In this document: positions 9,346 to 47,581 of the stretch, piece by piece
How positions within the stretch are numbered: the stretch's first letter is position 1
Layout: every line of letters starts with the position of its first letter
NCBI RefSeq assembly: GCF_030028105.1
Contig: NC_092375.1
Location: forward strand, 34,261,130 to 34,325,129
Length of the DNA stretch: 64,000 nucleotides
Reading direction: 5' to 3'
DNA from: Mobula birostris
Taxonomy: Eukaryota
Notes under the pieces: generated by a model
What the model saw: the letters and a program-made list of their open reading frames with translations, nothing else
The model's database searches: none
What the model was told of the DNA's origin: nothing
Made by a program: the position numbers and the translations under genes

Positions 9346-9480
9346 CTAGTCCTGACGAAGGGTCTCGGCCTGAAACGTCGACTGCATCTCTTCCTACAGA
9401 TGCTGCCTGGCCTGCTGCGTTCACCAGCAACTTTGATGTGTGTTGCTTGAATTTCCAGCATCTGCAGAATTCCTGTTGTT
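9346..9480 (+). mobile_element. 135-bp PLE-derived mini-insertion (hammerhead plus 3' tail)
   Basis: Perfect 12-bp TSD tccacttacatt (9334-9345 and 9481-9492). Removing it restores the L1 frame SRWSPLTFSLVGRTHIVK. Confidence 0.92.
9348..9383 (+). ncRNA. Minimal type I hammerhead ribozyme (PLE type), intact
   Basis: AGTC-CTGACGA-AGGGTCTCGGCCT-GAAA-CG-TC^GACT. Stem I is AGTC/GACT, both core boxes are intact, stem III is the palindrome ACGT, and the GUC site predicts cleavage after 9379. Confidence 0.85.
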
Positions 9481-12400
9481 TCCACTTACATTTTCACTTG
9501 TTGGTCGTACTCATATAGTTAAAACGATGATTTTACCGAAATTTTTATATTTATTTCAGAATATTCCTGTTTTTTTGACTAGGAAGTTTTTTGATCGGAT
9601 TGATTCTATTATTTTATCTTTTATTTGGAATAATAAAAGACCAAGAATTAGTAAATGTCACTTACAAAAATTGAAAAAGGATGGAGGTCTTGCTTTGCCT
9701 AATCTAAGAATGTATTATTGGGCTGTTAATGTGCGATATATGTCTTTTTGGTTATACTGGGTTGATAACAGTGATCGGCCAATTTGGGTAGACCTGGAAC
9801 TGGAAGTTGTAAAACAGTTTTATTTAACCTCGTTATTGGGAGCTCCTTTACCTATGCAATTAGTTAAAGTTGTTAATCTAAACCTATATCCTGTGATTAA
9901 GTATTCTTTACAAATTTGGCTCCAATTCCGCAATTTTTCTAATCTTAAAAAATTTAAACTTTGTAGTTTAATTTACCGAAATTACTTTTTTTAAGCCTTC
10001 TTTGAGTGATCCAATTTTCTTACTTTGGAAAAATAAAGCTATTAATTCTTTTTTGGATTTATTTAAAGGAGATAGATTGATGTCTTTTGAACAATTAATT
10101 GATAAATATTCTCTTTCATACACTCTCTGCAGTACCTTCAAGTTAGACATTTTTTACAAAAATATTTAAATAATTTCCCTTACATATTGGAGGCTGACCT
10201 GTTAGATACTATTATGAGTATGAATCCTTTGATTAAGGGTTCTATTGGAAGAATTTATAATTTATTATTACAATGGGATAAGCGTCCTTTATCTAAGATT
10301 AAACAGGATTGGGAAAAGGAACTTAATTTGACTTTTACGACGGAGGATTGAATGCGGATATTGAAGATGGTTAACTCTTCTTCAATTTGTGCTAGCCATT
10401 CATTGATTCAATTTAAAATTGTACATCGTTATCATTTGACAAAGGAGAGACTTTCTAAAATCTTTCCTTATGTTGATAGTCATTGTGATAGATGTAAAAC
10501 TGAGATAGCTACACTGACACATATGTTTTGGTCTTGTTCTATATTGGAACAGTTCTGGAAGTCAGTTTTTTCCACAATTTCTAAAACACTTAAAATTAAT
10601 TTACAACCTAATAAATTAACTGTGCCTTTTGGAATAGTTCCTCAAAATATTCATGGTATTTCTGTGTCTGACCAACATGTTATTGCATTTGTTACATTGA
10701 TAGCTAAGAGGGCCATTTTGTTGAAGTGGAAGGATACATCAGCTCCCACTTTGTCACACTGGTTCTCTCAAGTGATGCTATGTCTTAGATTGGAGAAAAT
10801 TAGAAGTCAAACCTTTGAATCTTTGATTTTGAGAAAAGATGAGGTTCATTTGCTCGTTATTATCATTTGAGTTAATTGATATAATTTTTCCACGATCTAA
10901 TTGTAAATTTTTTCGTATATTTTCTTTTCTTGCTGGTGGTTTGATGTTTATTTTTAGAAGTTTTTTGTATGATGCATGACTCCGGGGTTGTACACCTAAT
11001 GGGTTCTTATTTTTCCTCACTTTTCTGCTTAGTAGGTTTTCGTTGTTATCACAAAATTTTTTTTCAATCTTTGTGATAGTCTTTTTTGAGACATTGTAAG
11101 TGTTGTTACTTCAATGTACTCATGTTATTTTTCCTGTATAATATAACAATAAAAATATTTGAAAAGAAAAGAAGACATAGCAAGCAGGATATAGACAAAG
11201 GAGAATCAGCTGATGTTGTGTACTTGAATTTTCAGAAGGCCTTTGACAGGGTGTCACACATGAGGCTGCTTAACAAGCTACGAGCCCATGCTATTACAGG
11301 AAAGATTCTAGCATGGATAAAGCAGTGGCTGATTGGCAGGGGGCAAAGAGTGAGAATAAAGGGAGCCTTTTCTGGTTGGCTGCTAGTGACTGGTGGTGTA
11401 CCACAAAGGTCTGTGTTGGGACCAATTCTTTCTACGTTAGAATTTCAATGATGTGGATGATGTAATTGTTGCAAAGTTTGCAGATGATGTAGATGGTGCA
11501 AGGTTAGGTAGCTTTGAGGAAGTAGAGAAGCTACAGAGGACAGACAGATTGGGAGAATGGGCAAAGAAATGTCAGATGGAATACAGTGTCAGAAAGTGTA
11601 TGGTTATGCACTTTGGTAGAAGAAATGAAAGAATTGACTATTTTCTAAATGGAGGGAAAATACGAAAAAAGCTGAGGTGCAAAGGGACTTGAGAGTCCTT
11701 TTGCAGGATTCCCTAAAGGTTAATTTGCAGGTTGAGTCTGTGGTGAGGAAGGCAAATGTGATGTTAGCATTCATTTTAACAGAACTAGAATATAAAAACA
11801 ATGTTGTGATGTTGAGACTTCATAAAGCACTGGTGAGGTCTCACTTGGATTATTGTGAGCAGGTCTGGGCCCCTCATCTTAGAGAGGATGTGCTGAAACT
11901 GGACAGGGTTCAAAGGAGGAGCAAAAAATGATTCCAGAATTGAACAGCTTGTCATATGAAGAGCATTTGATGGCTCTGGGCCTGTATTCACTAGAATTCA
12001 AAAGAATGAGGCATGGCTCATTGAAACCTATCAAATGGTGAAAGTCCTACATAGAGTGAATGTGAAGACAATGTTTCCTGAACTGGGAGAGTCTAAAACC
12101 AGAAGACACTGTCTCAGAATAGAGGGGCTTCCTTTTATAACAAAGATGAGGAGGAATTTCTTTAGCCAGAGTGGTGAATCTGTGGAATTCTTTACCACAG
12201 GCAGCTGTGGAGGCCAAGCCTTTATGTATATTTAAGGCAGAGGTTGACAGATTCTTGATTGGTCAGGGCATGAAGGACTATGAGGAGAAGGCAAGAGATT
12301 AGGGCTGAGAGAAAAAATGGATCAGCCATGATGAAATGGCAGAGCAGACTCAATGGGCCAAATAGCCTAATTCTGCTCCTATATCTTATGGTCTTATCAA

Positions 12401-12541
12401 TGAGATGTTTAAATATTAATATCAAAGTTAATGCACAAAGTGATGCAGCGGTACAAGATCAGTCACCATGGAAAGGCCAAATGGCTTTTTCATAATTCTG
12501 CTTTGGCTCTATAACATATTACTTTTAGAAAATACACTTAC

Positions 12542-12616
12542 ATCATCATCTTCATTAAAGACTGCAGCAACTGAAGGCTTCTTTGGAGCTAGGACAGGTG
12601 GATTTTCTTTTGGTTT
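12542..12616 (-). CDS. PCNP: PCNP coding exon 3
   Basis: 75 bp, ccctAG/.../GTAAGT. Encodes KPKENPPVLAPKKPSVAAVFNEDDD. Confidence 0.95.
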
Positions 12617-14349
12617 CTAGGGACAGGAATAGATCGTGCATGAATCAATATAACCAAAATAAGAACAAAAAGTTATATGAACTATTTTCCTTAACTAGAT
12701 GTTATGAGACTCTGTTTGAACCTTCACAACTACTCAAACACATTATAGTGAAACTACACATGAAATCAGTTTTTCCTTATTTATCAATACCATTAATAAA
12801 TTTGAACGTCATTCAGATTAAGTTTCTGTCTTTCGAAGAAGTGTCTCTTTTATTTCCAAGTGCAGTCCACCACATTCCCTTGCTAACCACTCAATTCCTT
12901 TATAAATATTTCAGTTCAATTTGATGAGTGCATAAATAACCTCACTTTCCCTTCCATTTTAACTCTTTTAATTTCCTTCTATTAATCATGGCTATTCTAA
13001 TAATGATCCATGCTTATGCTATTCTATCAATAGTCTGAATGATACAAAAGTATCACCAGTATGTACCACCAGGCACAATATTTGAGCCTAAAGATATGGT
13101 CTGAGCAACTGAGCACTGTGAAAATACTCAGAGAATTAGTTACCATCAACATGATTTTCCAAAGAAGTTTACTCAAATGAAAAATAAGTGACCTGAAACA
13201 CTAACTCTATTCTTCAAATGCTGCCCCACAAGTCAGGTATTTCTGGAATTTTCTATTTTTATTTCTGATATCCAGTATTTACAGTAATTTACTTTTGTAT
13301 TTTAAAGGATATGCCAATCCTGATGAATCTATGTGAAACTTTGCAACAAGGTGACAAAAAGAGCATCTACTGAAATTTTAATACGGAGTCACTAATGTCT
13401 CAGTGACATTATATGATGCTAGCTCAGACGAAGTTAATGGAATTGATGGTGAATTACTGTTCTAATTGTGAAAATGTCTGAGCAGCAAGAGGTAGTGAGC
13501 ACGGATACTGGGGCAAATGCTCCAAGATCTACCCAACTGATCCCCCACAAGGACTCAGGTTTAATTAGTCACCCAAAAAATCTACTGACTAAAAAAAATC
13601 ACACAACTATATATATTTTTACATAGTTTGTAAGAAAATCAACAACACTGCCTGAATAATTTCATCTAAAATATTCCAACTTGGTAAGCATAGCCCAACT
13701 TAAGAGTTAAGAATTTACACTGTCATTTCAGAATCAGGTTGGATAATAAGGTTGTTATTACAAAAACACGTTATTCCAAATTAAATTTGCAACAATTTTT
13801 TCAATTTCTATATTTTACCTTTCTTACAAGAATCACCTTCACAAACTATGAACTGTTTGATATTCAAGTGCTCTAAGGGGACAGCCTAATACTGACCATT
13901 AACAGACAGACTGGAGATAAGTGCATTCTGAAAGTAAAACAACAATCTGAGCCTGACTTTGAACTTTAACATTTCATAACGCTGCACTGTTCACATGCTT
14001 TAGATTAAGTACACTCCACTTAATTAAGAGAATGTTAGAATTAAATGAAAATAGGATGAACGAAAAGACTGACAGTATACCTCCATGAAATTTAGTTTGG
14101 CCCTCAATGCAATCCATTAGTAGGTTTAATGCTCATAGTATCTCATACTAAACTGATACTCTTCTGCCTCAGTTATATACATCACAGCTTATACTCCATT
14201 TGAATCTGAACGAGTTAAGCTGTTTAGTAGGGAAAACTCAATGTAAGAAAAGTGCCATCCCATTTACTTGGTTTCAATAAATTATTGTCATTAACTACTC
14301 CATCCTCCCAACACATTAAAAACAAAACAAAAAAGAAGTCATTACTTAC

Positions 14350-14588
14350 ATTTGTTCCTAACTTGATGGATATTGGGGCTGGCTTCTTTAATGTTGTATT
14401 TCCTATCGAAAATCCAACTTTTGTGACTTTTGCAGGCGTGGGTTTGTTGTTTGTATCCCCAACAGCTGAGTCGTCTTGATCTCTTTCGTTAGCTGCTCTT
14501 TTCTCTGCATTTCGACTTGAACTTTCTCCTTCATTACTGGAAGAAACAGTCTTAGTTTTCATAGTTTTCTCTGCTTTCTCTTCTGGTC
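14350..14588 (-). CDS. PCNP: PCNP coding exon 2
   Basis: 239 bp, ccaccAG/.../GTAAGT. Encodes (G)[30 protein letters not shown]...GFSIG...ISIKLGTN. Confidence 0.95.
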
Positions 14589-16229
14589 CTGGTGGAGTCG
14601 AAACAACTTACCAAGATGAGATACTTTTATCGAGCACTGTGACGATTGCAGCAACCTCAATAAGCATTTAAGGAGCTTCTGTGGGTGTGCACTGCCTGAA
14701 CCAGCAGTCTCTTCCACTGTTTGTCAGATAGAGTAGATGCAGGCTCTAGAAAACCATTTCATAGATGGATAGACTCTAAATTTCAGTTTCAGGGCAGGAT
14801 TAATCCAGTGCTCCTGTTTCTTGGACCCCAGAAAAAATTCACAGGACCAAAACAGTACAGATTTTAGTAGACCAAAAGGTCCACAGTGAATACACATTCA
14901 CCAAGTACTTTTCAAACTGTAGATTTTCTGGTGTTACGTTTTAAACGACGTTGGGAATATAACATTTTAGCCACATTGGCAACATCCTAAAATAACTGGT
15001 GGCCAAAATCAATACCAGGATAAACAGATTCACAGTTCAAGAAATTTCATTTTCTACATTTGTGAATCTTGGTCTTACTTTTCATTGTCCAGCAGCATAC
15101 ATATGTTCCAGTGATGTTAAATTTAAAAATAGACAATTTTTCAAATCTGACAATTAGTTTGAAATCTGTCTGATTAAATTAAAGTTAATTCTGGAGACAA
15201 AATTCAGAATAGCAAATGACAACCAAAAACTTAAGGTTGAATAGTTTTACATATGTTGATTTACTATAGAATAAAATTTTGTTTTGAGAAGTAATTATTT
15301 TCAATTCAGAATTGACAGTTCTAAAACAAATTCCTCCTAATTTTCAACAAAGAACTTGCATAATAGTTTTCAGATCCAAATGATTTTAACATATGTACTA
15401 GCTAAGAGCCTTATTTCTATTTGCCCCCAATATCACATTTTTCTTAATAAATATTCTCTGCATTCCAACAAAACAGCCCAGGACCTAGCAAGCATTCCTT
15501 TCATTGGCCTGTTAATTAGAAGATAGAAATGGATACAACATTGGGCTGTTATATACAAAACATACACAATATGAAAAGTCCACTTTGACTCCCTAATCGC
15601 TATCGCTCTCCATTTATACTATACAAAACTTTATTTCTGCAAGGTCATTACTATAAGAATTAAATAATTCTTAAAAGAAGTGATTTATTCCACAACAAAT
15701 TAGGGTAAGTTTTAAACACAGCACAATCAATGCATTATTTGAAAGAAAACTATATTCAAATTTGCACACCAAAAATATACTAGAGGAAATGCAAAACACT
15801 AACTTTCAAAAATACTCCGACCAGGCAGCAACTAATCAACCACCATTCATCAGAACTGGAAGCATGAATCAGTCCTGATTTTAAAAAAGTCGCTGATTTG
15901 TAAGATTAATCTCAACACAAACAGTGTACAGTCTGTTGAGTATTCATAGCATTTTCTTTTCCTATGCTGAAAATAGAATGGAATCATCTCATGTCAGAGC
16001 ATGGTTAAACAAATCTAAGTTGCAAGCTACCTGTTACTGTAATGTGAATTTACATTTACTTGGCAAGTTGCTGCAATGCCCCCTATGATACTGTTGTATT
16101 CAATTTCGTACACAGCAGCAACGAGGATACTTCATTAATTAAAACTAGTACTGATTTGGTCCTACTGGATTTTTTGTGTTGCCAAAATGTGAATCACACA
16201 ATGCAAAATAGGCGAAGTTGGTATTAGTA

Positions 16230-17790
16230 AAAAATAATCTACTAGAAAAGATAATGAGCCAGAGTACTGATAACCTCAAAACTTGAAGATTTTCATCGCA
16301 GAGTTTTGAAACAGTTGACTATAAAGATGATAATGGCTCTGAATATGTTACAGAATTCTATAGATCTTAACCTCTGCAGATAGCAGAGTGGCAAATGGGA
16401 CACCACCATTTAAGAAATGGAGAGACAAATTGGAACTTTCCAAACTGTTACCCTGATAACAATGGTGGGGAAAATGCTGGAATCTATTAATGCTTGGAAA
16501 ATATCAGCACTATTGATCAGTCTCAACATGGATTTATTAAAGAGAAATTGCATTTGACTAATGTACTGGAGGCCTTTGTGGATATATCCAGCAGAGCACA
16601 TAAGTGGGAACTAATGGATTTTCAGAAAGATCAAAGTCCCACACAGAAGCTTGATAAACAAGTTTAACATGAAGTTATGGTGATATAATGACACAGATTG
16701 AGAATTTGTAGAAAACAAGAGTGTAAAAATTAATGGATCTTTCTTGGGTTGGCAAGCTGTCAACTAGTTGGCAATGACAGAGCTCCAACTACTCACAAAT
16801 CATGTCAATGATCTGAGCCAGAAGGACCAAATGCAATATTTCCACATATACTCCAGCTACAAAACTAATCAGAATGAGAGTAACAAGGTGATCAGAAATA
16901 GATTTCAGACAGGCATTGACAGGCTGAATGGACAAAATGTGGTCAGTAGCATAAAATGTGGAAAAATGCAAGGTTAAAAAAAACGCTAAGTACTTTTTAA
17001 ATTGAAGAGTCTGAAATATTTATGTTCAAAGGGAAATGTGTGTCCTTATGCATTAGAAATCGATAGGTAATATGCAGGCACAACAATTAGGAAGGCAAAG
17101 GACTTACTGGAATTGACTTAACAAGTGATTAGAAGATTAAGAGTCCTGAAGAAGAATTTCAGCCCAAAACATTGCCTGTTCATTCCTCTTCATAAGTGTT
17201 GCCTGAGCTGCTGAGTTCTTCCAGCATTTGTGTGTATTACAGAAGAGTAACTGTGTCACACTGGAGTTATAGAAGGCCTAGAAACAGTGGAGTACTGTGT
17301 ACAATTTTAATTTCCTTTCTTAAAAATATACTATACTTGCTATAGGGTGAGCACAGTAAAGGTTTACCAGACTGGTTCCTATCATGCCAGGTCCATTATG
17401 TCAGGAGAGATTGAATAGGACAGACTTCTATTCTTCAGAGATTGGAAGACTCAGAAGTTAATTCATTGAAAAATACAAAATTCTTAAGAGGCACATCAAG
17501 ACAGACACATGGAGGGTATTTCCTAAAACTTTATGTCATTATCAGAGAATACAGCTAGATCGATTTGTATTGAACTCTTTTCACCCCAGAGTGATGAATC
17601 CTTGGAAATTTCTACCACAGAAGATCAGTCATTAGCTGAGATTGTAGCAGATTTCTGGGGAGTTAAAATATTCAAGCAATATGGGTTGGGAGAGGACTTA
17701 AAAACAGGACTGAGTTAGAAAATCAGCAATAATCTGATTGAAAGGCAGAGCAGGATTGAGTGGCCTATTGCCCTTGCCATGTTCTTAGCT
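16230..17790 (+). mobile_element. Old, heavily decayed CR1 LINE with a decayed PLE terminal repeat inserted at about 17142-17240
   Basis: Remnants of QHGF, DFQK and the CR1 3' tail. The insert AGTCCTGAAGA...AAAACATT is a decayed hammerhead. Confidence 0.65.
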
Positions 17791-18077: not shown

Positions 18078-18273
18078 TTAAAAACGCAAACACGAGGAAT
18101 TCTGCAGATGCTGGAACTTCAAGCAACACACATAAAAGATGCTGGTAAACGCAGCAGGCCAGGCAGCATCTCTAGGAAGAGGTACAGTCGACGTCTCGGC
18201 CCGAAATGTCGACTGTACCTCTTCCTAGAGATGCTGCCTGGCCTGCTGCGTTCACCAGCAACTTTGATGTGTG
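18078..18273. mobile_element. Fold-back (inverted dimer) PLE terminal-repeat insertion
   Basis: 17-bp TSD ttgcccaaagtgttaat (18061-18077 and 18274-18290). Inverted arms of about 70 bp at 18123-18192 and 18208-18277. Confidence 0.9.
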
Positions 18274-19135
18274 TTGCCCAAAGTGTTAATGCTTTCTTTC
18301 AGCTACCTCAATTAAATAAAATAACCAATTTAAAATCAATAATGTAAAAGTTAATTCCAAATCAAGATATTAGATAGGATTGCAAGATTATAAAAGCTGC
18401 ATAATTAGGCCATATGGTCCTTTGCATCTCATCTGATTCATTAAGAACATGGCTGAAATTACAGAATAATTTAAAGTGAACTTAAACTACAATCAAATAC
18501 ATATTAAGACACATCAGGTGGCGGTATTTTACATCAAACTGACATAATAGGAGTCAGATACATTTCATTAAAAAATACAGAAAAGATATTAAATCTGCAA
18601 CTAAGCTTGCAGAAGTTATATCAAGTACAAAATTATTTTTTAAATCTGAAAGGTTGCTTTTAAACAAATGTGTCAAGTTTGATAAATTTTCACTTGAACC
18701 CCAACATTTAGGCATGAGGAACTTTATTTTGTTCGTTCACAGGATCCGCCTCCAAACTGGGTGGCCTGCTGGGGCAGTTTGAGTCAACCACGTTATTAAG
18801 GATCTAAAGTTCACAGATAGGGCTAAGGCTGGCTAACGTTAACAGAACTCCTCGCTGATGAACACAACCCCATTAAATGATTTAAAACTGGAAGGTGAGC
18901 CTTTAACGGCAACATATCAAATTAGGCGTGACGGATCTAAGGTGGGGGGGGGGGGAAGAACCGCTTTCGCCTCTCATCTCGCTGGGGGCCCGCCCCGGTC
19001 ACCCTCCCGCACTCCTCCATGCGTCCTTATGAATTTTATACACAAATGTCTTTCCTTCACTAACGCGGTAGCATGTAATGTGTAGCACTGCACTTGCTGC
19101 CGCGCTCGGTGTGGTAAAAGATTAGGAACCGGCAC

Positions 19136-19439: not shown

Positions 19440-20330
19440 GTGTTATTCATCTCTAATTGAAATATTGTTGTCACATGTAAGGAGATACAGTTGAAAAGCT
19501 TGTCTTGCCTACTTCACAAACAGATCAGATCGTTACACAGTGCACTGAAGGTAGAACAACGTAAAACAACGATGCAGGCCTCACCTTACCTATCACCTGT
19601 CAGCTGTACTCCATCCCCTTCCTATCCAGTCATGAAGGGCCTGAAATTTGACTGTTTATTCCCTTCCAGGAATACAGCCTGTCTTGCTGAGTTCCTTCAG
19701 CAATTTTTTTTTGTTGCGTAAGATTTCTATCATCTCCAGAACCTCTTAATGTACAGAATAATGTGTAACTGCTATAGTACAGGTAGATTACGAGGTCAAA
19801 AGCTTAATTTATTATTCCTGGGAACCTTTTAATAGTCTTATAACAGCAGGTTGGAACCTGTACTTTGGCCTGGTGGTATGTGCTTTCAGGCTTTTTGCAT
19901 CTTCTGCCCAATGGAAGAAGAGAGTGACCGGAGTGGGTGGCTGCTTTACTGAGGCAGCAGGAACTGTAAATGTAGTCCAGTGAGGGGAGGCTGGTTGCTG
20001 TGGTGTGTGCGCTGCAGTTTCTTGCAGTCACGTGCAGAGCAATTGCCATACCAAACTGTCGTGCAGCCAGATAGGATGCTTTCTTTGGTGCGTCGATAAA
20101 AAATGGTAAAAGTTGATGGGGAAGTAGTGGTGTTGGTTAGCTTTCTTGGTGGTTACATCTATGTAGTTGGAGCAGGACAGCATCATGCTCACAAGCCCCT
20201 CAACCACAACATCATTGATGTAGACAGGAGCATGTGCTCCCCACCCCTGTCTGAACTGAATGACCTGCTCTTCTGTTTTACCGACATTGAGGGAAAGGTT
20301 GTTGTCATGACATCACGTTACTAAGCTCTT
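19440..20330 (-). mobile_element. Decayed Rex1/Babar-like LINE 3' part, with a decayed PLE fragment at about 19580-19745
   Basis: ORF 19804-20049 resembles the Rex1 C-terminus (SLPSLDYIYSSCCLSKA..HSGHSLLPLGRR). Confidence 0.6.
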
Positions 20331-20339
20331 TCTCAGGTT

Positions 20340-22943: not shown

Positions 22944-24110
22944 TTCTCTGGGTGTGAGTCAATCTGTAGACGCTGCAAAACTAAAGCACACACACAAAAT
23001 GCTGGAGAAACTCAGCAGGCCAGGCAGCGTCTACTGTACCGTCAACACTTTGGGCCAAGACCCTTCAGCAGGGCTGGAGAAAAAAAATGAGTAGATTTAA
23101 AAGGTGAGGTGAGGGGAGAGAGAACCACAGGGTGATAGGTGAAACCAGGAGGGGGAGGCATGAAGTAAAGAGCTGGGACGTTGATTGGTGAAAGTGATAC
23201 AGGGCTGGAGGAGGGGGAGTCCGATAAGAGAGAACAGTAAGACATGGAAGAAAGAAAAGTGGGGGAGGAGCACCAGGGGGAGGTGATGGGCAAGCACGGA
23301 GATAAGGTGAGAGAGGGAAAAGGGGAACGAGAGGGGTGGGGGCCATTACTGGAAGTTTGAGGAATTGATGTTCATGCCATCAGGCTGGAGGCACCTAGAC
23401 AGAATATAAGGTGTTGTTCCTCTAATCTGCATGTGGCCTCATCACAACAGTAGAGGAGACCATAGACTGACATGTCAGAATGGGAATGGGAGGTGGAATT
23501 AAAATGGGTGGCCACTGGGACCTCCAACTTGAGTGTCACCTCATTGTGACAGAAGAGGATATATCCCATTACCATGCAGATATGTCCCAGTGGGCATCCA
23601 TTTTAATTCCACTTCCTATTTCCATTCTGATATGTCAATCCATGGGCTCCTCTATTATCGTGATGAGGCCACACTCAGGTTGGAGAAACAACACCATATA
23701 TTCCAACTGGGTAACCTCCAACCTAGTGGCATGAACATTGATTTCTCGAACTTCCGGTAATGCCCCCCCCTGCCCCTTCCTCATCCTCTTTGCCCTCTCT
23801 CACTTTATCTCTTTGCCTGCCCATCGCCTCCCTATGGTACTCCTTCCCCCTTTTCTTTCTTCCATGGCCTTCTGTCCTCTCCTATCAGACTCCCCCTTCT
23901 CCATCCCTGTACCTCTTCCACCCATCAACTTTCTAGATCTTCACTTCATCCTTTGCCCTCCCAGTTTCACCGATCACCCTGTGCTTCTGCCTCCCCTCCC
24001 CCAACCTTCTAACTCATCTCTTTTTTCTCCAGTCCTACCGAAACATCGACTGTACTTTTTTCCCATAGATGCTGCCTGGCCTGCTGAGTTCCTCCAGCAT
24101 TTTGTGTGTT
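22944..24110. mobile_element. Older inverted PLE dimer (two GIY-YIG C-termini plus 3' UTRs, diverging)
   Basis: Minus arm ATHFNSTSHSHSDMSVYGLL.. and plus arm GIHFNSTSYFHSDMSIHGLL... Candidate 10-bp TSD gaatgacatt (22934-22943 and 24111-24120). Confidence 0.8.
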
Positions 24111-24379
24111 GAATGACATTGACTATCAAGAAAAGGTAATTTGAGTCTCTGATGGTGGAGAGGGTCATGGCCTGTTACTTTTGTGGCATGAACATTAGTT
24201 ACCACTTAAGTCTGTGCCAGAATGTTATTGAGGTCTTGCTGTAAGCAGGCACAGGCTCCCTCATTTAATGAGAACTTGTGAATGGAAATGAACATCCTGC
24301 AGTCATCAGTAAACATACAATCTTCTGAATTTCAGGTGGAAGGAAGATAGTTGATGAAAGAGATGAAGATGGTTCACTG

Positions 24380-24902
24380 GAATACAAATTCGGTAACAAG
24401 CAAGATTTCCAATCCCCATTCCCATTTCGACACGTTGACCACCATGAGGCCACTCTCAGGTAGGGGGAGCTCATTCCGTTTGTGTAGCCTCTGACCTGAT
24501 TGTATCAACATCCATTTCCCTAACTTCTGATAATTTTTCCCCTTCCCTCCAACTCCCCATTTCCTCTCCCCTGGTGCCCCTCTTCCTTCCCTTTTCCCCA
24601 TAGTCCACTCACCTCTCCTATCAGATTCCTTCTTCTCTGGTCCGCTGCCTTTACTAACCATCACCTCCCAGCCTCTTACTTCATCCCCTCTCCCCTACCC
24701 ACCTGGCTTCACCTTTCAGCTTCTACGCCTTCCCCTCTCCCCATTTTGACTTCCCTTTTCTTTTCCAGTCATGATGAAGAGTCTTGGCCAGAAACATCAA
24801 CTGTTTATTCATTTCCAAAGATGCTGCCTGACCTGCTGAGTTTCTCCAGAATTTTGTATGTATTACTCCAGATTTCCAACATCTACAGAAGCTCTTGTGT
24901 TT
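24380..24902 (+). mobile_element. PLE 3' end with decayed hammerhead
   Basis: Pyrimidine-rich UTR followed by CAGTC-ATGATGA-...-GAAACATC-AACTG at about 24766-24803 and the typical tail. Confidence 0.75.
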
Positions 24903-26384: not shown

Positions 26385-26840
26385 ACCACAAGACGCAGGA
26401 GCAGAATTAGGCTATTTGGCTCAACGAGTCTGCTCTGCCATTTCATCATGGCTGATCTTGTTCCCCCCCCCAGCCCCACTCCACCGTCTTCTCCATGTAA
26501 CCTTTGGTGCTGTGTCCAATCAAGAACCTGTCAACACTCACAACATACTGGAGGAACTCAGCAGGTCAGGCAGCATCTGTGGAAAAAGGCTGCCCAACCT
26601 GCTGAGTTCCTCCAGCGTGTTGTGAGTGTTGCTTTGACCCCAGCATCTGCAGAGTATTTTGTGTTTAAGAACCTGTCAAGCTCTGCCTTAATTACACCCA
26701 ATGACCTGGCCTCCACAACTGCCTGTGGTAATAAATTCCACAAATTCACCACCCTCTGGCTAAAGAAATTTCTCCACATCTGTTTTAAATGGATGCCCCT
26801 CTATACTGAGCCTGTGCCCTCTTGTCCTAGACTCCCAGCA
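26385..26840 (-). mobile_element. CR1 3' end containing a fold-back PLE insertion
   Basis: RNFFSQRVVNLWNLLPQAVVEA and the CR1 tail. Confidence 0.85.
26535..26666. mobile_element. 132-bp fold-back PLE terminal-repeat insertion (ribozyme region absent)
   Basis: 13-bp TSD aagaacctgtcaa (26522-26534 and 26667-26679); inverted arms of about 43 bp. Confidence 0.88.
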
Positions 26841-26931
26841 AATTCAGAAACACAGATTGTGGAAAGGGGCAACACACATAAAAGTTGATGGTGAACGCAG
26901 CAGGCCAGGCAGCATCTCTAGGAAGAGGTGC

Positions 26932-26967
26932 AGTCGACGTTTCAGGCCGAGACCCTTCGTCAGGACT
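26932..26967 (-). ncRNA. Minimal type I hammerhead ribozyme, intact
   Basis: Minus strand AGTC-CTGACGA-AGGGTCTCGGCCT-GAAA-CG-TC^GACT. Confidence 0.85.
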
Positions 26968-27720
26968 AACTGAAGGAAGAGTGAGTAAGGGATTTGAAAG
27001 TTGGAGGGGGAGGGGGAGATCCAAAATGATAGGAGAAGACAGGAGGGGGAGGGATGGAGCCAAGAGCTGGACAGGTGATAGGCAAAAGGGATAAGAGAGG
27101 ATCATGGGACAGGAGGTCTGGGAAGAAAGACAAGGGTGGGGGGGGACCCAGAGGATGGGCAAGGGGTATATTCAGAGGGACAGAGGGAGAAAAAGGAGAG
27201 TGAGAGAAAGAATGTGTGTATAAAAATAAGTAACAGATGGGGTACGAGGGGGAGGTGGGGCATTAGCGGAAGTTAGAGAAGTCAATGTTCATGCCATCAG
27301 GTTGGAGGCTACCCAGACGGAATATAAGGTGTTGTTCCTCCAACCTGAGTGTGGCTTCATCTTTACAGTAGAGAAGGCCGTGGATAGACATGTCAGAATG
27401 GGAATGCGACTTCTCTAACTTCCGCTAATGCCCCACCTCCTCCTCGTACCCCATCTGTTACTTATTTTTATACACACATTCTTTCTCTCACTCTCCTTTT
27501 TCTCCCTCTGTCCCTCTGAATATACTCCTTGCCCATCCTCTGGGTCCCCCCCCCCCGTCTTTCTTCCCGGACCTCCTGTCCCATGATCCTCTCTTATCCC
27601 TTTTGCCTATCACCTGTCCAGCTCTTGGCTCCATCCCTCCCCCTTCTGTCTTCTCCTGTCATTTTGGATCTCCCCCTCCCCCTCCAACTTTCAAATCCCT
27701 TACTCACTCTTCCTTCAGTT

Positions 27721-27756
27721 AGTCCTGACGAAGGGTCTCGGCCTGAAACGTTGACT
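27721..27756 (+). ncRNA. Minimal type I hammerhead ribozyme, GUU cleavage triplet
   Basis: AGTC-CTGACGA-AGGGTCTCGGCCT-GAAA-CG-TT^GACT. Confidence 0.8.
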
Positions 27757-28687
27757 GCACCTCTTCCTAGAGATGCTGCCTGGCCTGCTGCGTTCACCAG
27801 CAACTTTTATGTGTGTTGCTTGAATTTCCAGCATCTGCAGAATTCCTGTTGTTTGTGGAAAGGGGTTTATCTCTGATACACGTCAATGAATCCGCTTGTT
27901 GCATTACATTACTGAGAAATAAGGAGCATGCCTTTGATTTTCCAAGCATTTATTGCCATGTGAGAAAATCAGTTGATCTTCTACCTAGTCATTTTCCTGC
28001 ACCATTCCCATATCCTTGATTCTATTAGCATCTAGTAATCTATCCATCTGTTTTCACAGAGTTTGATTACTGAGTATCCAGAGATAGCAAATTGCAAAGG
28101 TTCACCTTCTGCTGTGTGAAGAAATTTCTTCTTATCTTGGCCCCAAATAGCCTACACCATATTCTGAGACTGAGATCCCTCCTTGCTAGACTTCTCAACT
28201 CTATGCACAACAAGAGTCGAATTCCAGGAAGGACACGACGCCCGAGGCAGCGTTGTAATCCTTGTGTCTATCCGAGTATCCAAAACCATTAAATATGTTA
28301 AAACTTCGGATAAATTGTAAAACCGGCCTTATTTTACTTACTTGGCATGCAAATTGAATCAACTATTTTTTAGATTTATTTTATTTTTCGCAGTCCCAAT
28401 TTAAGTTCAAATGTCGAAGGAAATGAATTATAATTAAAATTATTATATGGTTTCACTTGAATTAATGAACGTGACACAACACTAAAGCCAGTGTTTTTAT
28501 GCGAGGAAATTCTTGCGAGCAAAAGTATGAAGCCAGCAAAACTGAAAGAACACCTCACGTCTGTTCATCCTGAAAATGTGTTTTTCCCCCTATGTGAAGA
28601 AAGCTCAATTCGAAAAAGTTGGGACACTTCCACAACTTGGATTTGCCAGTTTATAAAAACCATTTCTTGAAACATCCTATGAAGTTG

Positions 28688-28832
28688 TTTGCCAGTCCTG
28701 CCGAAGGGTTTCAGCTCCAAACGTCAACTGTACTCTTTTCCTAGATGCTACCTGGCTTGCTGATTTCCTCCAGCATTTTGTGTGCATTTTCCGGATATCC
28801 AGCATCTGCAGATTTTCTCTTGTTTGTGATTG
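28688..28832 (+). mobile_element. PLE mini-insertion with decayed hammerhead inside the hAT
   Basis: CAGTC-CTGCCGA-...-CAAACGTC-AACTG plus tail. Imperfect TSD tcctatgaagttg/tccataaagttg. Confidence 0.75.
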
Positions 28833-29475
28833 TCCATAAAGTTGCTTACTGGATTGCCAAGCAAAAGAAGCCCCACACTATTGGAAAGACTTTTGGAAAG
28901 CCATGTGCACTGGAAATAGTCGAGCTGGTTTTTTGGACTGGAACCGAGGGGAAAAAACTGGAAGCGATTCTCTTATCAGATAATGTGATGTGTTCTAGAA
29001 TAGTTGCTATTTCTTTTAATGTTTTGAAGCAGGCTATTGAAGAATTAGCAGCCTCAATTCCCATTCAATCTGCTATGGGATAAAATGTCAGATAACTCTC
29101 AATGTAGTTAGCTCCGTGTTTTTTGTTTGTTATGTGCATGCTGACGCCAAAGGATTCTATTTTGTGGGTCCCTTTTGGAAACTGCAAAGACTGTCAATGT
29201 TTTTGAAATGGTAATTTTTTTTTGCCAAACAAAACTGACTGGAAAGAAAAACTTCATACTCTTTGCACAGATGGAGCTCCTGTGATACTTGGTAATACAT
29301 CTGGGTTTCTGCTTTAGTAAAAAGGAAGCTCCTCATGTCGTCACTACTCGCTTCCCCCCCACACAGACATACACTGGGAACAAAGACTCTTCCAACGACC
29401 CTGACAGAAATATTGTCAACAGCCATAAACGTCACCAACTTTATCAGAAGCTGGTCTCTGAATAATCACTTTTTC

Positions 29476-30538
29476 TGCCGTCATCAATGATGCCCTCACC
29501 CGCATCTCCTCCATTTCCTGCACTTTGGCCCTCATCCCATCCTCCCGCCACCACAACAGGGACAGAGTTCCCCTTGTCCTCACCTACCACCCCACCAGCC
29601 TCTGGATCTAACACATTATCCTCCGCAACTTCCGCCACCTTCAACAGGACCCCACCACTAAGCACACCTTTCCCTCTCCACCCCTCTCTGCTTTCTGCAG
29701 GGTTCGGTCCCTCTGTGACTCCCTGATCCACACGTCCCTCCTCACGGATCTCCCACCCGGCACTTATCCCTGTAAGCATAAGTGCTACACCTGTCCCTAC
29801 ACCTCCTCTCTTGCCACCATTCAGGCAACACTTCACTTGTGAGTCTGTTGCAGTCACCTATTGCATCCGGTGCTCCCGGTGTGGCCTCCTCTACATCGGT
29901 GAAACCCGACGCAGATTGGGCACCTTCGTCGAGCACCTCCACTCTGTCCGCCACAACAGACAGGATCTCCCGGTTGCCACCCACTTCAACTCTGCTTCAC
30001 ATTCCCATTCGGATAGGTCCATACATGGCCTCCTCTACTGCCATGATGAGGCTAAACTCAGGTTGGAGGAGCAACAGCTCACATATCGACTAGGTAGTCT
30101 CCAGCCCCTTGGTATGAACATAGAATTCTCCAACTTCCGGTAATTCCTTCCCCCTCCCTTCCCCTATCCCTATTTCACTCTGTCCCCTCCCCCAGCTGCC
30201 TACTACCTCCCTCATGGTTCCGCCTCCTTCTACTACCCATTGTGTTTTCCCCTATTCCTTCTTCACCTTTCCTGCCTATCACCTCCCTGCTTCCCCTCCC
30301 CCACCCCTTTATCTTTCCCCTTACTGGTTTTTCACCTGGAACCTACCAGCCTTCTCCTTCCCTCCCTCCCCCCACCTTCTTTATAGGGCCTCGGCCCCTT
30401 CCCTCTACAATCCTGACGAGGGTTTCCGGCCCGAAACATTGACTGATCGTTTCCATGGATGTTGCCCGACCTGCTGAGTTCCTCCAGCATGTTGTGAGTG
30501 TTGCTTTGACCCCAGCATCTGCAGAGTATTTTGTGTTT
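29476..30538 (+). mobile_element. 5'-truncated Penelope-like element with GIY-YIG endonuclease, 3' UTR and hammerhead
   Basis: ORF 29811-30143 FTCES..VTYCIRCSRCGLLYIGETRRRL..F.EHL...VATHFN is a PLE GIY-YIG domain. Imperfect 8-bp TSD actttttc/acattttc. Confidence 0.92.
30408..30445 (+). ncRNA. Minimal hammerhead ribozyme in the PLE 3' repeat (core intact, stems mutated)
   Basis: CAATC-CTGACGA-GGGT TTCCG GCCC-GAAA-CA-TT^GACTG. Confidence 0.7.
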
Positions 30539-38155: not shown

Positions 38156-38539
38156 CTGAATAAAAATAAAATCATAATAAAATTATTCAAGCAGCGGAGA
38201 ACCAATATTATTCTTCAAATATTATGCTGATTTAGCTTTGTCCCTTTTCATGATGGCTGCAGTACCTTTAAATGTTGCTGACCAATTAACATGCAGCCCT
38301 CTCTACTAACTACAGCTGTTTTTAATATATTCTATATTAGTTTAGTTTTATGTACAGGCAGTAGAGAAGGCAAAGCATAAAACTGAGAGCTAACTTCCCA
38401 TTTTAAGACTACTTTTTACATTATTTGTCATCAATAATTTTTCTGCAAAAGTAGTAGGATTTCTGAATAGCATGGGAGTAATTATATTAATAGAATTTTA
38501 AAAGTTTCTTTTATCAAAATAACTTTAGTTTTACAGTAA

Positions 38540-38672
38540 TACACACAAAATGCTGGAGCAATCAGCAAATCAGGCAGCATCTATGGAGGGGAATAAACAT
38601 TCGATATTTCAGGCTGAGAACCTTCACCAGTCCTAATGGAGGGTCTCGGCTAGAAGACGAGAAATCCAGCAC
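38540..38672. mobile_element. Decayed fold-back PLE terminal repeat with two divergent decayed hammerheads
   Basis: tttcaggctgagaaccttcaccag followed by agtcctaatggagggtctcggctagaa. Confidence 0.6.
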
Positions 38673-40630: not shown

Positions 40631-40636
40631 TTCTCA

Positions 40637-41062
40637 TACGAGGGGTGATTGATAAGTTCGTGGCCTAAGGTAGAAGGAGTCAATTTTAGAAAACCTAGCA
40701 CATTTATTTTTCAGCATAGTCCCCTCCTACATGTACACACTTAGTCCAGCGGTCGTGGAGCATACGGATCCCTTCTTTGTAGAAGTGGTCCACAGCAGGG
40801 GTGATTGATTAAATTAGTGGCCTAAGGTAAAAGGAGATGAGTTATTAACTTCAAACTTTCTGCATTATCACTCAAAGAGTTGAACTGCATGTGCATGTAT
40901 CGAGCAGGTCTTGGACCTCCAGGGGGTCCACAGCAGGGGTGATTGATAAGTTCGTGGCCTAAGGTAGAAGGAGATGAGTTATACAGCTCTCGTTACATGC
41001 ACGTGCAGGTCAACTCTGAGTGAAAATGCAGAAAGTTTGAAGTTAATAACTTACCTCCTTCA
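40637..41062. mobile_element. Mariner/Tc1-like non-autonomous element with internal direct and inverted repeats
   Basis: Begins TA-CGAGGGGTGATTGATAAGTT. This unit occurs three times (about 40641, 40797 and 40936), with a roughly 65-bp inverted pair at 40838-40903 / 40989-41051. Confidence 0.55.
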
Positions 41063-41169: not shown

Positions 41170-41536
41170 CAGTGTTAACGGCAATGTGATCCGACTTAAA
41201 ATGGCGGATGGTGTTCTCCTTCCTCGAGCCAATGAATTGCTGAAGCTGTGCAATGTTTTCATGAGCATCAAAGTAGTGCGTGCGTTCATTATTACGAACC
41301 ATTGTATTTAACTCAAATTTTTAATATAACAGGCTTTATGGCAGTCCGTTCATAAGTACAAGTTGTCTGTAAGTTGGACGTTCTTAACCCGGAGACTTAC
41401 TGTAAACACATCTGATCTTGCATTCTTTAAAGTTTTCATTTAATATTCAAACCATTACGTACATTGATGTAATATAAATAACATTCCTATAACCGAATTG
41501 CTATAACTTTTGTAACATACACTGCACTGTACTCAC

Positions 41537-41695
41537 TTGTATGGCTCAGTAACAGAATGTGCTTTTACATGAGAATACCAGTCCTTCTTCCAGCTGTAGC
41601 ACTTCCCACAGATCTGGCACTGAAATGGTTTAACACCAAGATGCTTGTACATGTGTTGCTGCAGGTCACGTGCTTCGTAAAAACTTCGTTCACAT
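41537..41695 (-). CDS. ZBTB11: ZBTB11 coding exon 9
   Basis: 159 bp. CERSFYEARDLQQHMYKHLGVKPFQCQICGKCYSWKKDWYSHVKAHSVTEPY. Confidence 0.97.
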
Positions 41696-41959
41696 CTACA
41701 AAAATGAAGGTATCCTCTCAAAGAAAAGTTTTCATTTCAACTATAATGAATCTTCCAATAGGTTTGCATGATAAATTAGCAATACAAAACTTAAACAGTA
41801 AGTGTAAAAATGAAGCCAGGAATCTAAAATTAAATGACACAATAGAGGATCTTAATATTGAATAATCCAAACATATCAGTTCTGAACTACATTAACACAA
41901 AACCATAAATGTAATAATCTCCATCCATTTTCCTACCTTGTGCCCATTCACTCCGACAT

Positions 41960-43490: not shown

Positions 43491-44017
43491 TCAACATAAA
43501 TATGAAACGACAGATTCTTCGATTCTGCTTCACATATAGTAATGTAATGGAATAGAAACTAATCCTTTACAGAATCCATTTATTTTTATTATATGAAAAT
43601 CAATTTTATAAAAAAGCCAGCTCTATAAAAGTATATAATAGCTCTGCTTAATTATTCCAACTTTAAAGATGAAGAATTTGTCAGAGAACATAAAGTGACT
43701 TCAGGGAATCACAACCTCATAAAACATATATGTTGAAAGTAGTCAAGGTGATAAATCATATCAGAAATTCCCTATGTCAAGCAAATATTAACCTGGATTT
43801 TTGTTTTTGTTATTTTTTTTTTAAAAAGAAAGATAAATATCTTACAATGATTCTGAATGGCAAGGACATTAAAGAGTCTGAGTTATTTCCAGTTCCTATT
43901 TTTTTGTCTCCCTGTCAATGTGCAACCCAAGTATATACACCATTTTCAAACCTAGTTTTCATTGCCATGTAAATCCTATAAAAGACCATTTGTAAATGAA
44001 TCATTCCACTAACTTAC

Positions 44018-44135
44018 TGGGTACATTGAAAGCTTCTGATTTCAGGTTTCGGCAAATGTCTTTTTAAATGTTTGCTGAGACCGGAGGCACGTTTGAAACA
44101 TTTTCCACAAGTTGGACAGAGGTACTTGGATTCAC
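44018..44135 (-). CDS. ZBTB11: ZBTB11 coding exon 8
   Basis: 118 bp, absent from the ORF track. GESKYLCPTCGKCFKRASGLSKHLKRHLPKPEIRSFQCT(Q); ttcAG and GTAAGT. Confidence 0.95.
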
Positions 44136-45813
44136 CTGAAATGTCAAGCAAAACTTAATATCACTTAAGCACAATATTGAAACAGAATATGAAATGGGGA
44201 TCAAAATACAAATCAAATGTAGATATAACTGTAGTAGTTGTTTCCCAGTTTATGAAAACAATTAAGGAGAATGAAAACGATAGGCAAGACTAATTAACTT
44301 TTGTTCAAGAGTATTCTGTCCTTTTATTCATTGATCAGAGTCTTACGAAGAAACCAAACTCCTTCACATAGTTAACCAGAAATTCATACAGAAGCCAGGG
44401 AAGGAGAGCCACAGATGAACACAAGTAGGCTCTTAAGGCCACCTAGTCCACACTGACCATTAACCACACATTTACACCAATCCTACATTAATCCATTTTT
44501 ATTCTCCCCATTTTCTCATCTACAGCCCACAGATTCTACACTTACCTATACACTAGGGACAATTTACTGTGGCCAGTTAACTTACCAATGTGCAAGTCTT
44601 TAGGAAACCCATGCATTCACATGGAGAACCAGTAAAGCTCCATTCAGACAGGAGCCAAGTCAGGATTGTACCTGTTCTCTGGCACCGTTGAGCAGCAGCT
44701 CTACCAAATGTACCACAGGGCCTCATGGTGGGGGGGGGGGGGGGGTGCAGAAAGAGTTAGGGAGGCAAATGATATTCAATGAACAGACATAGTTAATCTT
44801 AGCAACACAGAGAAAATTAAGTAAAAAGTTTATACTGTAGGTGCACCCAATCCAGTGCAACCTGAGACAACTGCTGCGGAAAGGACATGGTAACAGAATA
44901 GAGTTTAGAACACATTTTCAATTTTGAAAGTATCTACAATGCAGCAAAATATTCTCATACCACTTCACAAGGTTGTCAGACGTTTGCTGAGGAGACGTTA
45001 GACAGCTAAGAATTGTGGACCTGAAAAGTACATAGACATGGAAAGAGCTGAAGTAAGGATGAAAATTTAAAATCCAGACATTGCTCGATCTGGAAGCAAG
45101 AGGCAAACTGGAGTTGCAGGAGATTTAAATGTTTGCTGGTTTATACAGAAAAGAATAAGGAAAGGTTTGGAATAGTGAAGTGTAGTGGTAACAAGGCTAT
45201 GGAAGAGAATACAAGTATTCAGATGAGTCCAGAGGCACACTGTGGGGCAAGGAGGTGAGATCGGAGGTCTGAAGTTCAGCTCAGGATAACATATGAAAAG
45301 TCACTCAGCCACAAAGGCACAGAAACAGTCCCTTTGGCCATGCCAACTACCAAGTACTAGTCTACCTGAATTCCATTTACCAGCCCTTGCTCAATGGCCT
45401 TCTGTTCCTGGCCAATTCAAGTGATTGACTAGATGCTTAAATATTGTGAGAGCACCCATTTTAACCACCTTCAGAGGCAGTGCTTTCCTGTTTCCAATCA
45501 TTCTTGTGGTGAGAATTTCCTCATCATTTCATGTCTAAACATCTTCCCCGGAACTTAAATCTGATAGGGAGAAATATTTCATTTATCTGGCCTGTCCAAA
45601 CCTCTCTGTTTTGTACACCTCAATCAGGCCCCCCAAGCGCACACCTCCCTGCCCACCTGAGCATAATTCTAGCTGATAAGATATAACACCACCAAAACAA
45701 ATGAAGCAAGGAGAGATATCACAATCATCGAAACCTTTCTGGAGAAAGTACACTGAGAACTCATACATTTTCTGCAAACTAGCAAGATGGATTCTAACAT
45801 TTTGTTCCCTTAC

Positions 45814-45958
45814 CTGTGTGAACACTACTGTGCTCCTGAAGACTGCGCTTTGTAGCAAATGATTTTTCACATATTTCACAGCTAAATTCCCTTTTACCTT
45901 CATGGTGAGCCATGTGTAGTCTTAGACTGTGTTTATAGCCAAAAGTCTTCCCACATAT
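45814..45958 (-). CDS. ZBTB11: ZBTB11 coding exon 7
   Basis: 145 bp. ICGKTFGYKHSLRLHMAHHEGKREFSCEICEKSFATKRSLQEHSSVHT(G). Confidence 0.95.
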
Positions 45959-46660
45959 CTAATGAACAGTGAAAGTTAAATTATTATAACATTTTTTGTT
46001 GCCTGATCAACAACCTAAAATTATCCATTCCCATCCTGAAACGTCAATCCCCTTCAGGATTTCGACAATAAAGCACTGTTTACCTTCTCATTTGTTGTTC
46101 AACCAGCTGTTATTAGCAATCAAATCTGATCCTGTCCTTAACCACTGTTCACACTTGTAGAAGTGACTAATGTACAAGTAAGAGGATATCATGGTGTTTT
46201 CTTTCTTTGCGCAGTGGTGCTGTTTCCCCCTGCATTACAACTATCAGTTTCTGTAGCTGACACCATATCAAAATGAGACCCTTAACATTTCTTTCTTAAA
46301 TTTGAAGATGCCAGTTCCATAATACCTGATTAGTTATTAATTTCTAGAAACTTAGCAATTATAATAGGAATTTATGATCTAAAAGTATATCATTCAAAGA
46401 GAGAAATAATATCAAAATAATAGACATGCAATTAGAAAGTTTGCAGAAGTATGCTGCATGTGACTTTTTTCTTTAGCTATTCCAATTAAAAGCACCTTAA
46501 TTCTCCAAGATTGTCAAATTTAGATGTCATTTCAAAACTTGCTATTATAATATTAAATCTCTGGAGATTCATAGCACTTTTAACAAAGAAAACACTCTGT
46601 TCCAATAGTAGCCACTATTAAAAGGTTCTTCTTAAAATGCAGATAAAAATAAATTCTCAC

Positions 46661-46867
46661 CTTGCACACATGTGGCTTGACACCCGTGTGCTTAAGCATA
46701 TGAAGTCGCAGGTTATAAGGCTTTGGCAATGTTTTTCCACAGATGTCACAGATGAACTGCCGCTTCGTTCTACCCGCAAGACTCTCATCTATTTGCTCAG
46801 TGGTCCTCCTGTGGCGCAGAAGATGTGAAAGCAGGGAAGCTTTGTAGAGGAACTCCTTCTCACAGAG
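46661..46867 (-). CDS. ZBTB11: ZBTB11 coding exon 6
   Basis: 207 bp. LCEKEFLYKASLLSHLLRH...GRTKRQFICDICGKTLPKPYNLRLHMLKHTGVKPHVCK. Confidence 0.95.
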
Positions 46868-47302
46868 CTAAAGCAACAGGAAATGAATCTGATATTTTGC
46901 TCATAGTAAAGATGTTAGAATAGAATATGTTCCACTATTTGCATTAATTCTACTGTCCATTTGTTTTTTTTTTCAACAGAAGCCCAGCACCATCTTGATA
47001 GAAAGTGTATGTAGACACCCTTTATTTTTAAAATACAGAAAGTGTGTGCTGGTACTTCACAGGAAGGCATTATAGAGAGACCTAATCACTGACCTTCAGA
47101 CAAGAACAATGGAGCTAATTCAGCATAGACCATTCCATCTGAATGGATCAATACTGTATCGTATAATTGATGTATCTGTTAAGTTATAATTGAACACAGA
47201 CCATGAAAATACAGACAATGGCAAGTGCTCTCAATCTGTAAAAATTGCAACTTGCTCCACAAATCTAAAATTCTTCCTATCAAAAGCATAATACTGATAC
47301 AT

Positions 47303-47581
47303 GCAACACACACAAAATGCTGGCGGAACGCAGCAGACCAGGCAGCATCTATAGGAAGAAGTACAGTCGATGTTTCGGGCCGAGACCCTTCATCAGGACT
47401 AACTGAAAGAAGAGATGGTAAGAGATTTGAAAGTGGGAGGGGGAGGGGGAGATCTGAAATGACAGGAGAAGACAGGAAGAGGAGGGATGAAGCTAAGAGC
47501 TGGAAAGTTGATTGGCAAAAGGGATACAGAGCTGGAGAAGGGGGAGGATCATGGGACGGGAGGCCTAGGGAGAAAGAAAGG
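47303..47581 (-). mobile_element. PLE 3' fragment in ZBTB11 intron 5
   Basis: 7-bp TSD gatacat (47296-47302 and 47582-47588). Closely related to the 26870-27852 arms. Confidence 0.88.
47365..47400 (-). ncRNA. Minimal hammerhead ribozyme, sense to ZBTB11 pre-mRNA
   Basis: Minus strand AGTC-CTGATGA-A-GGGT CTCG GCCC-GAAA-CA-TC^GACT. The core is intact; the stem III palindrome is changed to ACAT. Confidence 0.75.

Follow-up and report, generated by a model that had tools for sequence, protein, structure and literature searches.

The window analysed here is a stretch of 64,000 nucleotides of the genome of Mobula birostris (assembly GCF_030028105.1, contig NC_092375.1, positions 34,261,130 to 34,325,129 of the forward strand; positions below count from its first letter). 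Dispersed over it lie copies of a repeat that carries a minimal hammerhead ribozyme motif (min-HHR), and these motifs are the 3' ends of the pseudo-long terminal repeat (pLTR) of a Penelope-like element (PLE). An initial annotation had read them as PLE-borne min-HHRs. This reading is supported, as the PLE link and the min-HHR identity both hold on the element anatomy and on the published consensus. Very probably the motifs are minimal type I hammerheads in the pLTR of a Neptune/Nematis-type PLE that was amplified in several waves, the dispersed copies being inert. The motifs with both core boxes and their carriers, some with target site duplications (TSD) or remnants of the reverse transcriptase (RT) and endonuclease (EN), are:

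9347 to 9384, plus strand: intact min-HHR of the young subfamily S1, found by box and strict-pattern searches
9347 to 9481, plus strand: 135-nt mini-insertion (hammerhead, pLTR end, tail) with a 12-nt TSD at 9334-9345 and 9481-9492
26869 to 27409, minus strand: inverted tail-less arm of one S1 insertion, with an intact min-HHR at 26931-26968 and the EN C-terminus at 27266-27409
27407 to 27854, plus strand: direct tail-bearing arm of the same insertion, whose min-HHR at 27720-27757 is intact and has a GUU site; both arms together are flanked by a 13-nt TSD
29474 to 30537, plus strand: 5'-truncated PLE of subfamily S2 with RT thumb remnant (29474-29680), linker and GIY-YIG EN (29678-30140), 3' untranslated region (UTR), a min-HHR at 30408-30445 that is damaged in both palindrome and stem I, and tail
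47297 to 47526, minus strand: pLTR end with core boxes at 47364-47401 and the palindrome lost (C-A), sense inside a BTB zinc-finger gene

The five CUGANGA...GAAA pairs reported initially were all recovered with both boxes, at 9352, 27725 and 30413 on the plus strand and at 26963 and 47396 on the minus strand. The whole window has 16 box pairs, whereas 100 shuffles gave 7.0 +/- 2.9. A strict descriptor (stem I of at least 3 bp, stem II of at least 3 bp, UH site) kept four motifs, and three (9352, 26963, 27725) when a self-complementary 15.2/16.2 pair was added, while the 100 shuffles gave none at both strict levels. The motif at 9347-9384 is composed, in this order, of the stem I 5' strand, CUGACGA, an unpaired A, stem II GGGU/GCCU, GAAA, CG, UC and the stem I 3' strand, with the cut predicted after 9379. 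Stem I and a stem III remnant had been attributed to all five copies, which stands for 9352, 26963 and 27725; 30413 and 47396 have a C-A at 15.2/16.2, a product of CpG decay, and have thus lost the dimer palindrome, and at 30413 the stem I beside the core has only 2 bp. The arrangement without helix III and with a self-complementary 15.2/16.2 is present in 3 of 5 window copies, and C-G occupies these positions in 69 of 74 S1 copies. Since 26963 and 27725 belong to the opposite arms of a single insertion, the five motifs represent four events. A profile of the 135-nt repeat had 22 matches in the window (E <= 1e-3) and identified the eight decayed sites named initially as family members throughout; further copies were a pair at 18088-18277, one at 24030 and a pair at 26525-26665. 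An Rfam scan of the window returned no hammerhead family at E <= 5, and its matches around 26550 and 27225 come from inverted arms of the PLE, not from hammerhead models.

From the pLTR end, copies reach upstream to varying length, through a 3' UTR of about 300 nt into an open reading frame (ORF). Several copies encode, in order, an RT showing DKG and YIDD, then a linker of the form CX4CXXC and, at the C-terminus, a GIY-YIG EN, and every ORF copy with RT and GIY-YIG is broken by frameshifts. The EN of a PLE copy scored 23.1 bits, above the Pfam cut-off of 22.6; the window frame 29727-30140 alone reached 14.4 bits, below this cut-off, and is 78.5% identical to a copy above it. Homologues numbered 345 at E <= 1e-20, the best named one being from Chiloscyllium punctatum (bamboo shark, 72%), which points to a cartilaginous fish as host. 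The initial annotation was right in finding a GIY-YIG ORF upstream of one copy, though not directly adjoining, the ORF ending about 270 nt before the motif. Among copies with enough flank, an EN was located upstream on the same strand, mostly 250-305 nt off, for 34 of 68 S1 and 17 of 34 S2 copies, sets that were largely chosen as best matches. Partial tandems, with hammerhead and tail directly before the ORF start, were seen at three loci (L110, L097, L088) of 25 picked by the N-terminal part of the ORF; the first ATG in L110 lies 37 nt past the tail. The 3' ends fall into two clusters, at 89-106 (23/48 arms) and 128-137 (25/48 arms), the tail of about 35 nt is mostly on the direct arm, and candidate TSDs of at least 10 nt flank 15 of 30 loci, two of these loci duplicating one another. 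Inverted 5'-truncated arms, partial tandems and a tail of 30-40 nt, all found here, are features of PLEs. Partial tandem, inverted 5'-truncated arm and 30-40-nt tail are likewise described for EN-bearing Neptune and Nematis PLEs, which also share the C-terminal GIY-YIG, a CX2-5CXXC linker and DKG (Craig et al. 2021, PMC8557442). Because of its CX4CXXC linker, which Penelope and Poseidon lack in contrast to the element described here (PMC8557442), the element would be of Neptune or Nematis type.

Other observations concern the same element. The N-terminal third of its ORF (L088, L089, L097, L108) contains a Pro/Ser-rich unit about 70 codons long, of which some copies have one and others two. 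Downstream of the hammerhead, a hairpin with UGCUG/CAGCA arms and a variable loop of 7-8 nt (window 9411-9428 and equivalents) is kept in all subfamily majorities and may be a recognition site of the RT. The loci L007 and L008, about 67 kb apart, are 99.9% identical over the compared flank, both with a short extra inverted hammerhead piece; they are a recent segmental duplication or an assembly duplicate.

Clustering was done on the 216 copies with a hammerhead part among 335 matches; 213 fell into six groups after three outliers had been removed, the sets of S1, S2, S4 and S5 being enriched by targeted searches. Median divergence ranges from 2% to 20%. When CpG decay is allowed for, CUGANGA and GAAA are the majority state in S1, S2, S3b and S4, not in S3a (A6C) and S5 (A9C). 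Two registers had been proposed for stem II. The register with an unpaired A after the core forms the closing pair in 73/74, 32/34, 16/18, 29/35, 22/23 and 26/29 copies of the six groups and was retained; the A-U register, formed in 69/74, 5/34, 7/18, 17/35, 20/23 and 10/29 copies of the same groups, fails in three of the six subfamilies and was ruled out. Changes in stem II preserve pairing and are one-sided (G-C to G-U, U-G to U-A). On the 28 copies nearest to their group majority, pairing held in 84.5% of the cells; with slid partners the share was 45.6% or less. A long-range stem conserved downstream of the hammerhead was looked for and not supported, as the subfamily folds disagree. Loss of the palindrome in S2 (A at 16.2 in 21 of 34 copies) was rejected as a change of the source gene and ascribed to CpG decay and query bias, because, in 5 of 7 arm pairs, the two sides of a single insertion disagree at this position, and the change was also present in the query.

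The A6C change was found in 13 of 53 S3 copies, unevenly split between the two lineages (11 of 18 copies in the first, 2 of 35 in the second; p 2e-5). None of the 108 S1 and S2 copies has it. It occurs in the window at 7821, 23076 and 28693 and in the sampled loci L041, L058, L079 and L036. The same core change is present in a natural hammerhead of low, Mn2+-favouring activity (Perreault 2011, PMC3088659; Naghdi 2020, PMC7151607), yet that is a single phage ribozyme, whereas here it marks a subfamily of a retroelement, for which the 5 copies in 510 kb extrapolate to roughly 40,000. A9C was counted in 25 of 29 S5 copies, a set retrieved with an A9C-bearing query; outside this set it was seen in 3 of 53 randomly sampled copies and in several that were met incidentally. 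S5 (L040:6146-6262, L051:2670-2795, L138-L159), with C for A9, is the oldest subfamily, its stem I is down to 3 bp, and 2 of 28 copies have weak EN matches upstream at the usual distance. Core and CpG positions of the copies decay as in neutral DNA. Older subfamilies were amplified with the core changes A6C or A9C.

Abundance was estimated from 51 stretches of 10 kb (510 kb) taken at round coordinates of large contigs, unplaced scaffolds being left out. This sample contained 103 matches to the profile, which was refined on the same 510 kb (reversed sequence: 0), and 12 strict motifs (20 shuffles: 0). Scaled to the genome of 4.01 Gb, with two arms of one insertion counted twice, these numbers correspond to about 810,000 arms (bootstrap 600,000-1,050,000) and about 94,000 intact motifs (95% bootstrap 47,000-150,000). 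No same-strand pair of core-intact motifs was present in any of the 51 stretches, and the two plus-strand ones of the window are 18 kb apart. For comparison, intact min-HHRs number about 9,000 in Xenopus tropicalis and 4,000 in coelacanth (PMC4209133).

The 5' ends were studied on 48 young arms of at least 88% identity, taken from random, window and incidental copies, whose choice did not depend on coverage of the motif. Forty-two reach +19, and 22 of these have their 5' end between -12 and +19, where the rate elsewhere of 0.0016 per nt predicts a share of about 5%; this interval was set after the data had been seen, and BLAST ends are accurate to a few bases. With one arm per insertion and random and window copies only, 11 of 15 end in the interval at the 5' foot of stem I. 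The end at -12, in L040, may be subfamily divergence. No arm of the 42 ends between +20 and +41, an interval that includes the scissile bond at 33/34, and RT stalling at the 3' foot of the hairpin does not agree with this. Over all subfamilies, 62 random matches scored at least 60, a filter that disfavours short copies: 21 kept the pyrimidine tract upstream of the motif, 20 end at about -5 to +8 (two slightly further), 14 at 9-19, six at 20-26 and one later. In simple insertions the TSD adjoins the motif start without a shared upstream exon, and an extra junction G, a sign of a cap, was seen in about one of nine. The bases at the motif start match the initiator pattern YYANWYY in five of six subfamily majorities, and they fit a 3' splice site as well. 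One full-length copy (L088) begins at -20. The continuity of the copies through the scissile site shows that the template was uncleaved, and in many cases this RNA stopped at the 5' foot of stem I. The pile-up of 5' ends together with the amplified A6C and A9C subfamilies suggests the uncleaved RNA as template. A branch-point stop near -12 was discarded, resting on 2-3 ends. Loose ends at motif positions 2-3 in RNA contigs of three runs, partly upstream sequence of other subfamilies, and joints in RNA contigs that leap over about 300 nt, most plausibly owing to divergent 3' UTRs, were not used.

Folding predictions do not favour an active shape. The RNA monomer of 9347-9386 is predicted as a rod of -11.5 kcal/mol, with G5-G8 paired to C15.2-C17, against -7.5 kcal/mol for the hammerhead shape; the active dimer has a predicted -12.5 kcal/mol, against -23.0 for two rods and -31.3 for the best co-fold. 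Published min-HHRs did not cleave as monomers and were weak as dimers or trimers (PMC4209133). The PLE hammerhead of Anolis cleaves only with the PLE protein and could be dispensed with when insertion was assayed in vitro; Anolis RNA-seq contained no ends at the cut site (PMC11167929). Because of the predicted rod, the weak published activities, the Anolis data and the lack of same-strand pairs in the sample, the solo copies are most likely inert; dispersed copies, those of the window included, are almost surely passengers without activity. The initial suggestion that the family could be among the most abundant catalytic RNA motifs holds for the abundance of the pattern and is unlikely for catalysis by dispersed solo copies.

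A mechanism that would account for these copies starts with the RT. Following the mechanism of Frangieh et al. (2024), the RT would have two internal start sites on the RNA, about 100 and 135 nt past the motif start, so that every copy, however short, bears the hammerhead end. The copied RNA was uncleaved and its 5' end often lay at the foot of stem I on the 5' side, presumably an RNA start or a processed end. Lacking helix III, the ribozyme most likely has no more than slow cleavage, either dimeric or helped by the PLE protein, within transcripts from tandem elements that are intact. The simplest reading of the 135-nt mini-copies is that RT from the upstream tail runs off the 5' end of the RNA. 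Several points weigh against this interpretation of inert hammerheads in a PLE. The RT core reached 21.4 bits, under the RVT_1 cut-off of Pfam (29.6), and an EN upstream was found in none of the eight testable S4 copies. The single clear two-sided change is a stem I C-G to U-A in 12 of 23 S4 copies, and covariation at the copy level (28 copies) was not above shuffles, its score being reached in 250 of 500. The folding energies leave out the non-standard contacts of the hammerhead core. Finally, the core is kept in most subfamilies, which argues that cleavage matters to the source elements.

We tentatively propose that the PLE RNA begins at the first hammerhead bases, with an initiator over stem I, that run-off RT gives the 135-nt mini-copies resembling short interspersed elements (SINEs), and that the ribozyme is a protein-gated off-switch. 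If so, the mini-copies would explain the huge copy number, and cleavage would remove the capped first ~32 nt instead of being a step for template release. The A6C and A9C subfamilies could then have reached tens of thousands of copies, which would amount to an experiment of nature, in vivo, on the role of the PLE hammerhead. Possibly the pile-up of 5' ends reflects not a transcription start but a 3' splice site, with AG at motif positions 2-3, where the RT is stopped or the RNA is cut. A pyrimidine tract precedes this AG in all subfamilies, and in Drosophila virilis the 3' end of the PLE intron coincides with helix I's 5' end (PMC4209133), the start site lying 46 nt upstream of a 75-nt intron (PMC2377424). 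This explanation has to contend with the TSDs that abut the motif start without a shared upstream exon, with the same bases fitting an initiator in all subfamily majorities except one, and with the start of the full-length L088 upstream of the motif.

It is unlikely that the short copies form a separate non-autonomous family, SINE-like or retrozyme-like, with its own source genes and borrowed PLE enzymes. Many copies of about 135 nt do have a TSD at the motif start (window 9347, L011, L034, L055, L069, L126), and PLE-derived retrozymes were proposed by Li et al. (2026, 10.64898/2026.07.22.740005), one chondrichthyan among their hosts. However, the short copies belong to the same subfamilies as the long ones and are 95-100% identical to the end of the autonomous element, the 5' ends are spread continuously as far as full length, and same-strand tandems of core-intact motifs were absent from the 51 sampled stretches. 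Still more improbable are working ribozymes that cut host transcripts, in trans as dimers or aided by chaperones of the host, and in this way influence the transcriptome. The number of intact patterns, the sense orientation of some copies in host introns (47396, in the BTB zinc-finger gene) and the low cleavage of published dimers and trimers (PMC4209133) speak for them. Yet the dimer helix would have only 4 bp, and the predicted energy of the active shape is far above that of the rod and of the misfolded dimer. Core and CpG positions decay like neutral DNA, the intronic sense copy at 47396 is without palindrome, and the Anolis RNA-seq was without ends at the cut site (PMC11167929).

The kind of motif is already known, and the bare finding adds one more host group; what goes beyond are the pattern of 5' ends and the core-changed subfamilies. 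PLE hammerhead variants have reportedly been treated by Lünse et al. (RNA Biol). Like the min-HHRs in metazoan PLE pLTRs (Cervera and de la Peña 2014, PMC4209133), the motifs are of type I without helix III, with a CG palindrome at 15.2/16.2 and UH. They share with that consensus the extra base after A9 and the G10.1 closing pair (G-U also occurs in its rows), and copies in both cases are mostly solo and truncated or in inverted pairs 100-700 bp apart. Differences are the short stem II (4 bp, 4-nt loop) and the estimated 94,000 motifs against about 9,000 and 4,000; the portions of text and supplement covered name no shark or ray (PMC4209133). As in Poseidon_Ac (PAc) of Anolis (Frangieh et al. 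2024, PMC11167929), a hammerhead is located at the junction of pLTR and ORF, two internal RT starts define the tail and uncleaved RNA is the template, but the first ATG of PAc lies in stem II and not past the tail. Animal non-LTR retrozymes likewise have type I hammerheads from PLE ends, including one chondrichthyan genome, although they form head-to-tail arrays (Li et al. 2026), unlike the solo or inverted ends here that are tied to an ORF-bearing element. Literature searches, which did not extend to Dfam and Repbase, found no paper on this elasmobranch family or on a 5'-end pile-up. For the open question of what the hammerhead does in PLEs, the genome, with hundreds of thousands of insertions, is a useful record of where template RNAs ended and which core variants could spread. 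Ends away from the cut site and amplification with changed cores support, from genomic copies, the uncleaved template found in vitro in 2024. In annotation, the repeat of about 135 nt belongs under a PLE end, not a SINE.

The remaining family members of the window are:

22957 to 24147, both strands: inverted pair of older age, whose minus arm has an A6C core (CUGCUGA) at 23076 and whose plus arm, at 24030, has the hammerhead mostly deleted; EN remnants at 23390-23530 (minus) and 23584-23757 (plus)
7691 to 7823, minus strand: decayed solo pLTR end of the A6C subfamily (repeat profile, subfamily assignment)
28693 to 28824, plus strand: decayed solo pLTR end of the A6C subfamily (repeat profile, subfamily assignment)
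18088 to 18277, both strands: young head-to-head pair, new relative to the initial annotation; arms begin at motif +19 and +16 (incomplete hammerhead); 17-nt TSD
26525 to 26665, both strands: head-to-head S2-type pair, truncated downstream of the hammerhead (repeat profile)
24766 to 24901, plus strand: decayed pLTR end of subfamily S3 (profile, clustering)
17142 to 17241, plus strand: decayed pLTR end of subfamily S3 (profile, clustering)
19629 to 19742, plus strand: decayed pLTR end with a deletion in the hammerhead (profile, clustering)
38533 to 38655, minus strand: decayed pLTR end; a second arm, short and inverted, lies at 38628-38655 (profile)
6663 to 6722, minus strand: strongly decayed hammerhead remnant (profile)

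The mini-insertion at 9347-9481 splits the ORF2 of an L1-type long interspersed element (LINE) at 8576-10870 on the plus strand, with RVT_1 over the cut-off; the LINE itself lies within a CR1-like remnant. Exons of the BTB zinc-finger gene, which we take to be ZBTB11-like, extend over 37584-59731 on the minus strand and include an N-terminal integrase-type H2C2 domain; the copies at 47396 and 38620 are in sense orientation in its introns. The neighbouring gene, of the PCNP family, has an exon at 14224-14607 (minus strand), a pairing as at human 3q12. Unrelated to the PLE, a 39-nt repeat occurs three times at 40641-40973 with spacings of 157 and 137 nt. A GC-rich inverted repeat with arms of about 29 nt at 51221-51322, near a transposase-like remnant, is possibly a miniature inverted-repeat transposable element.

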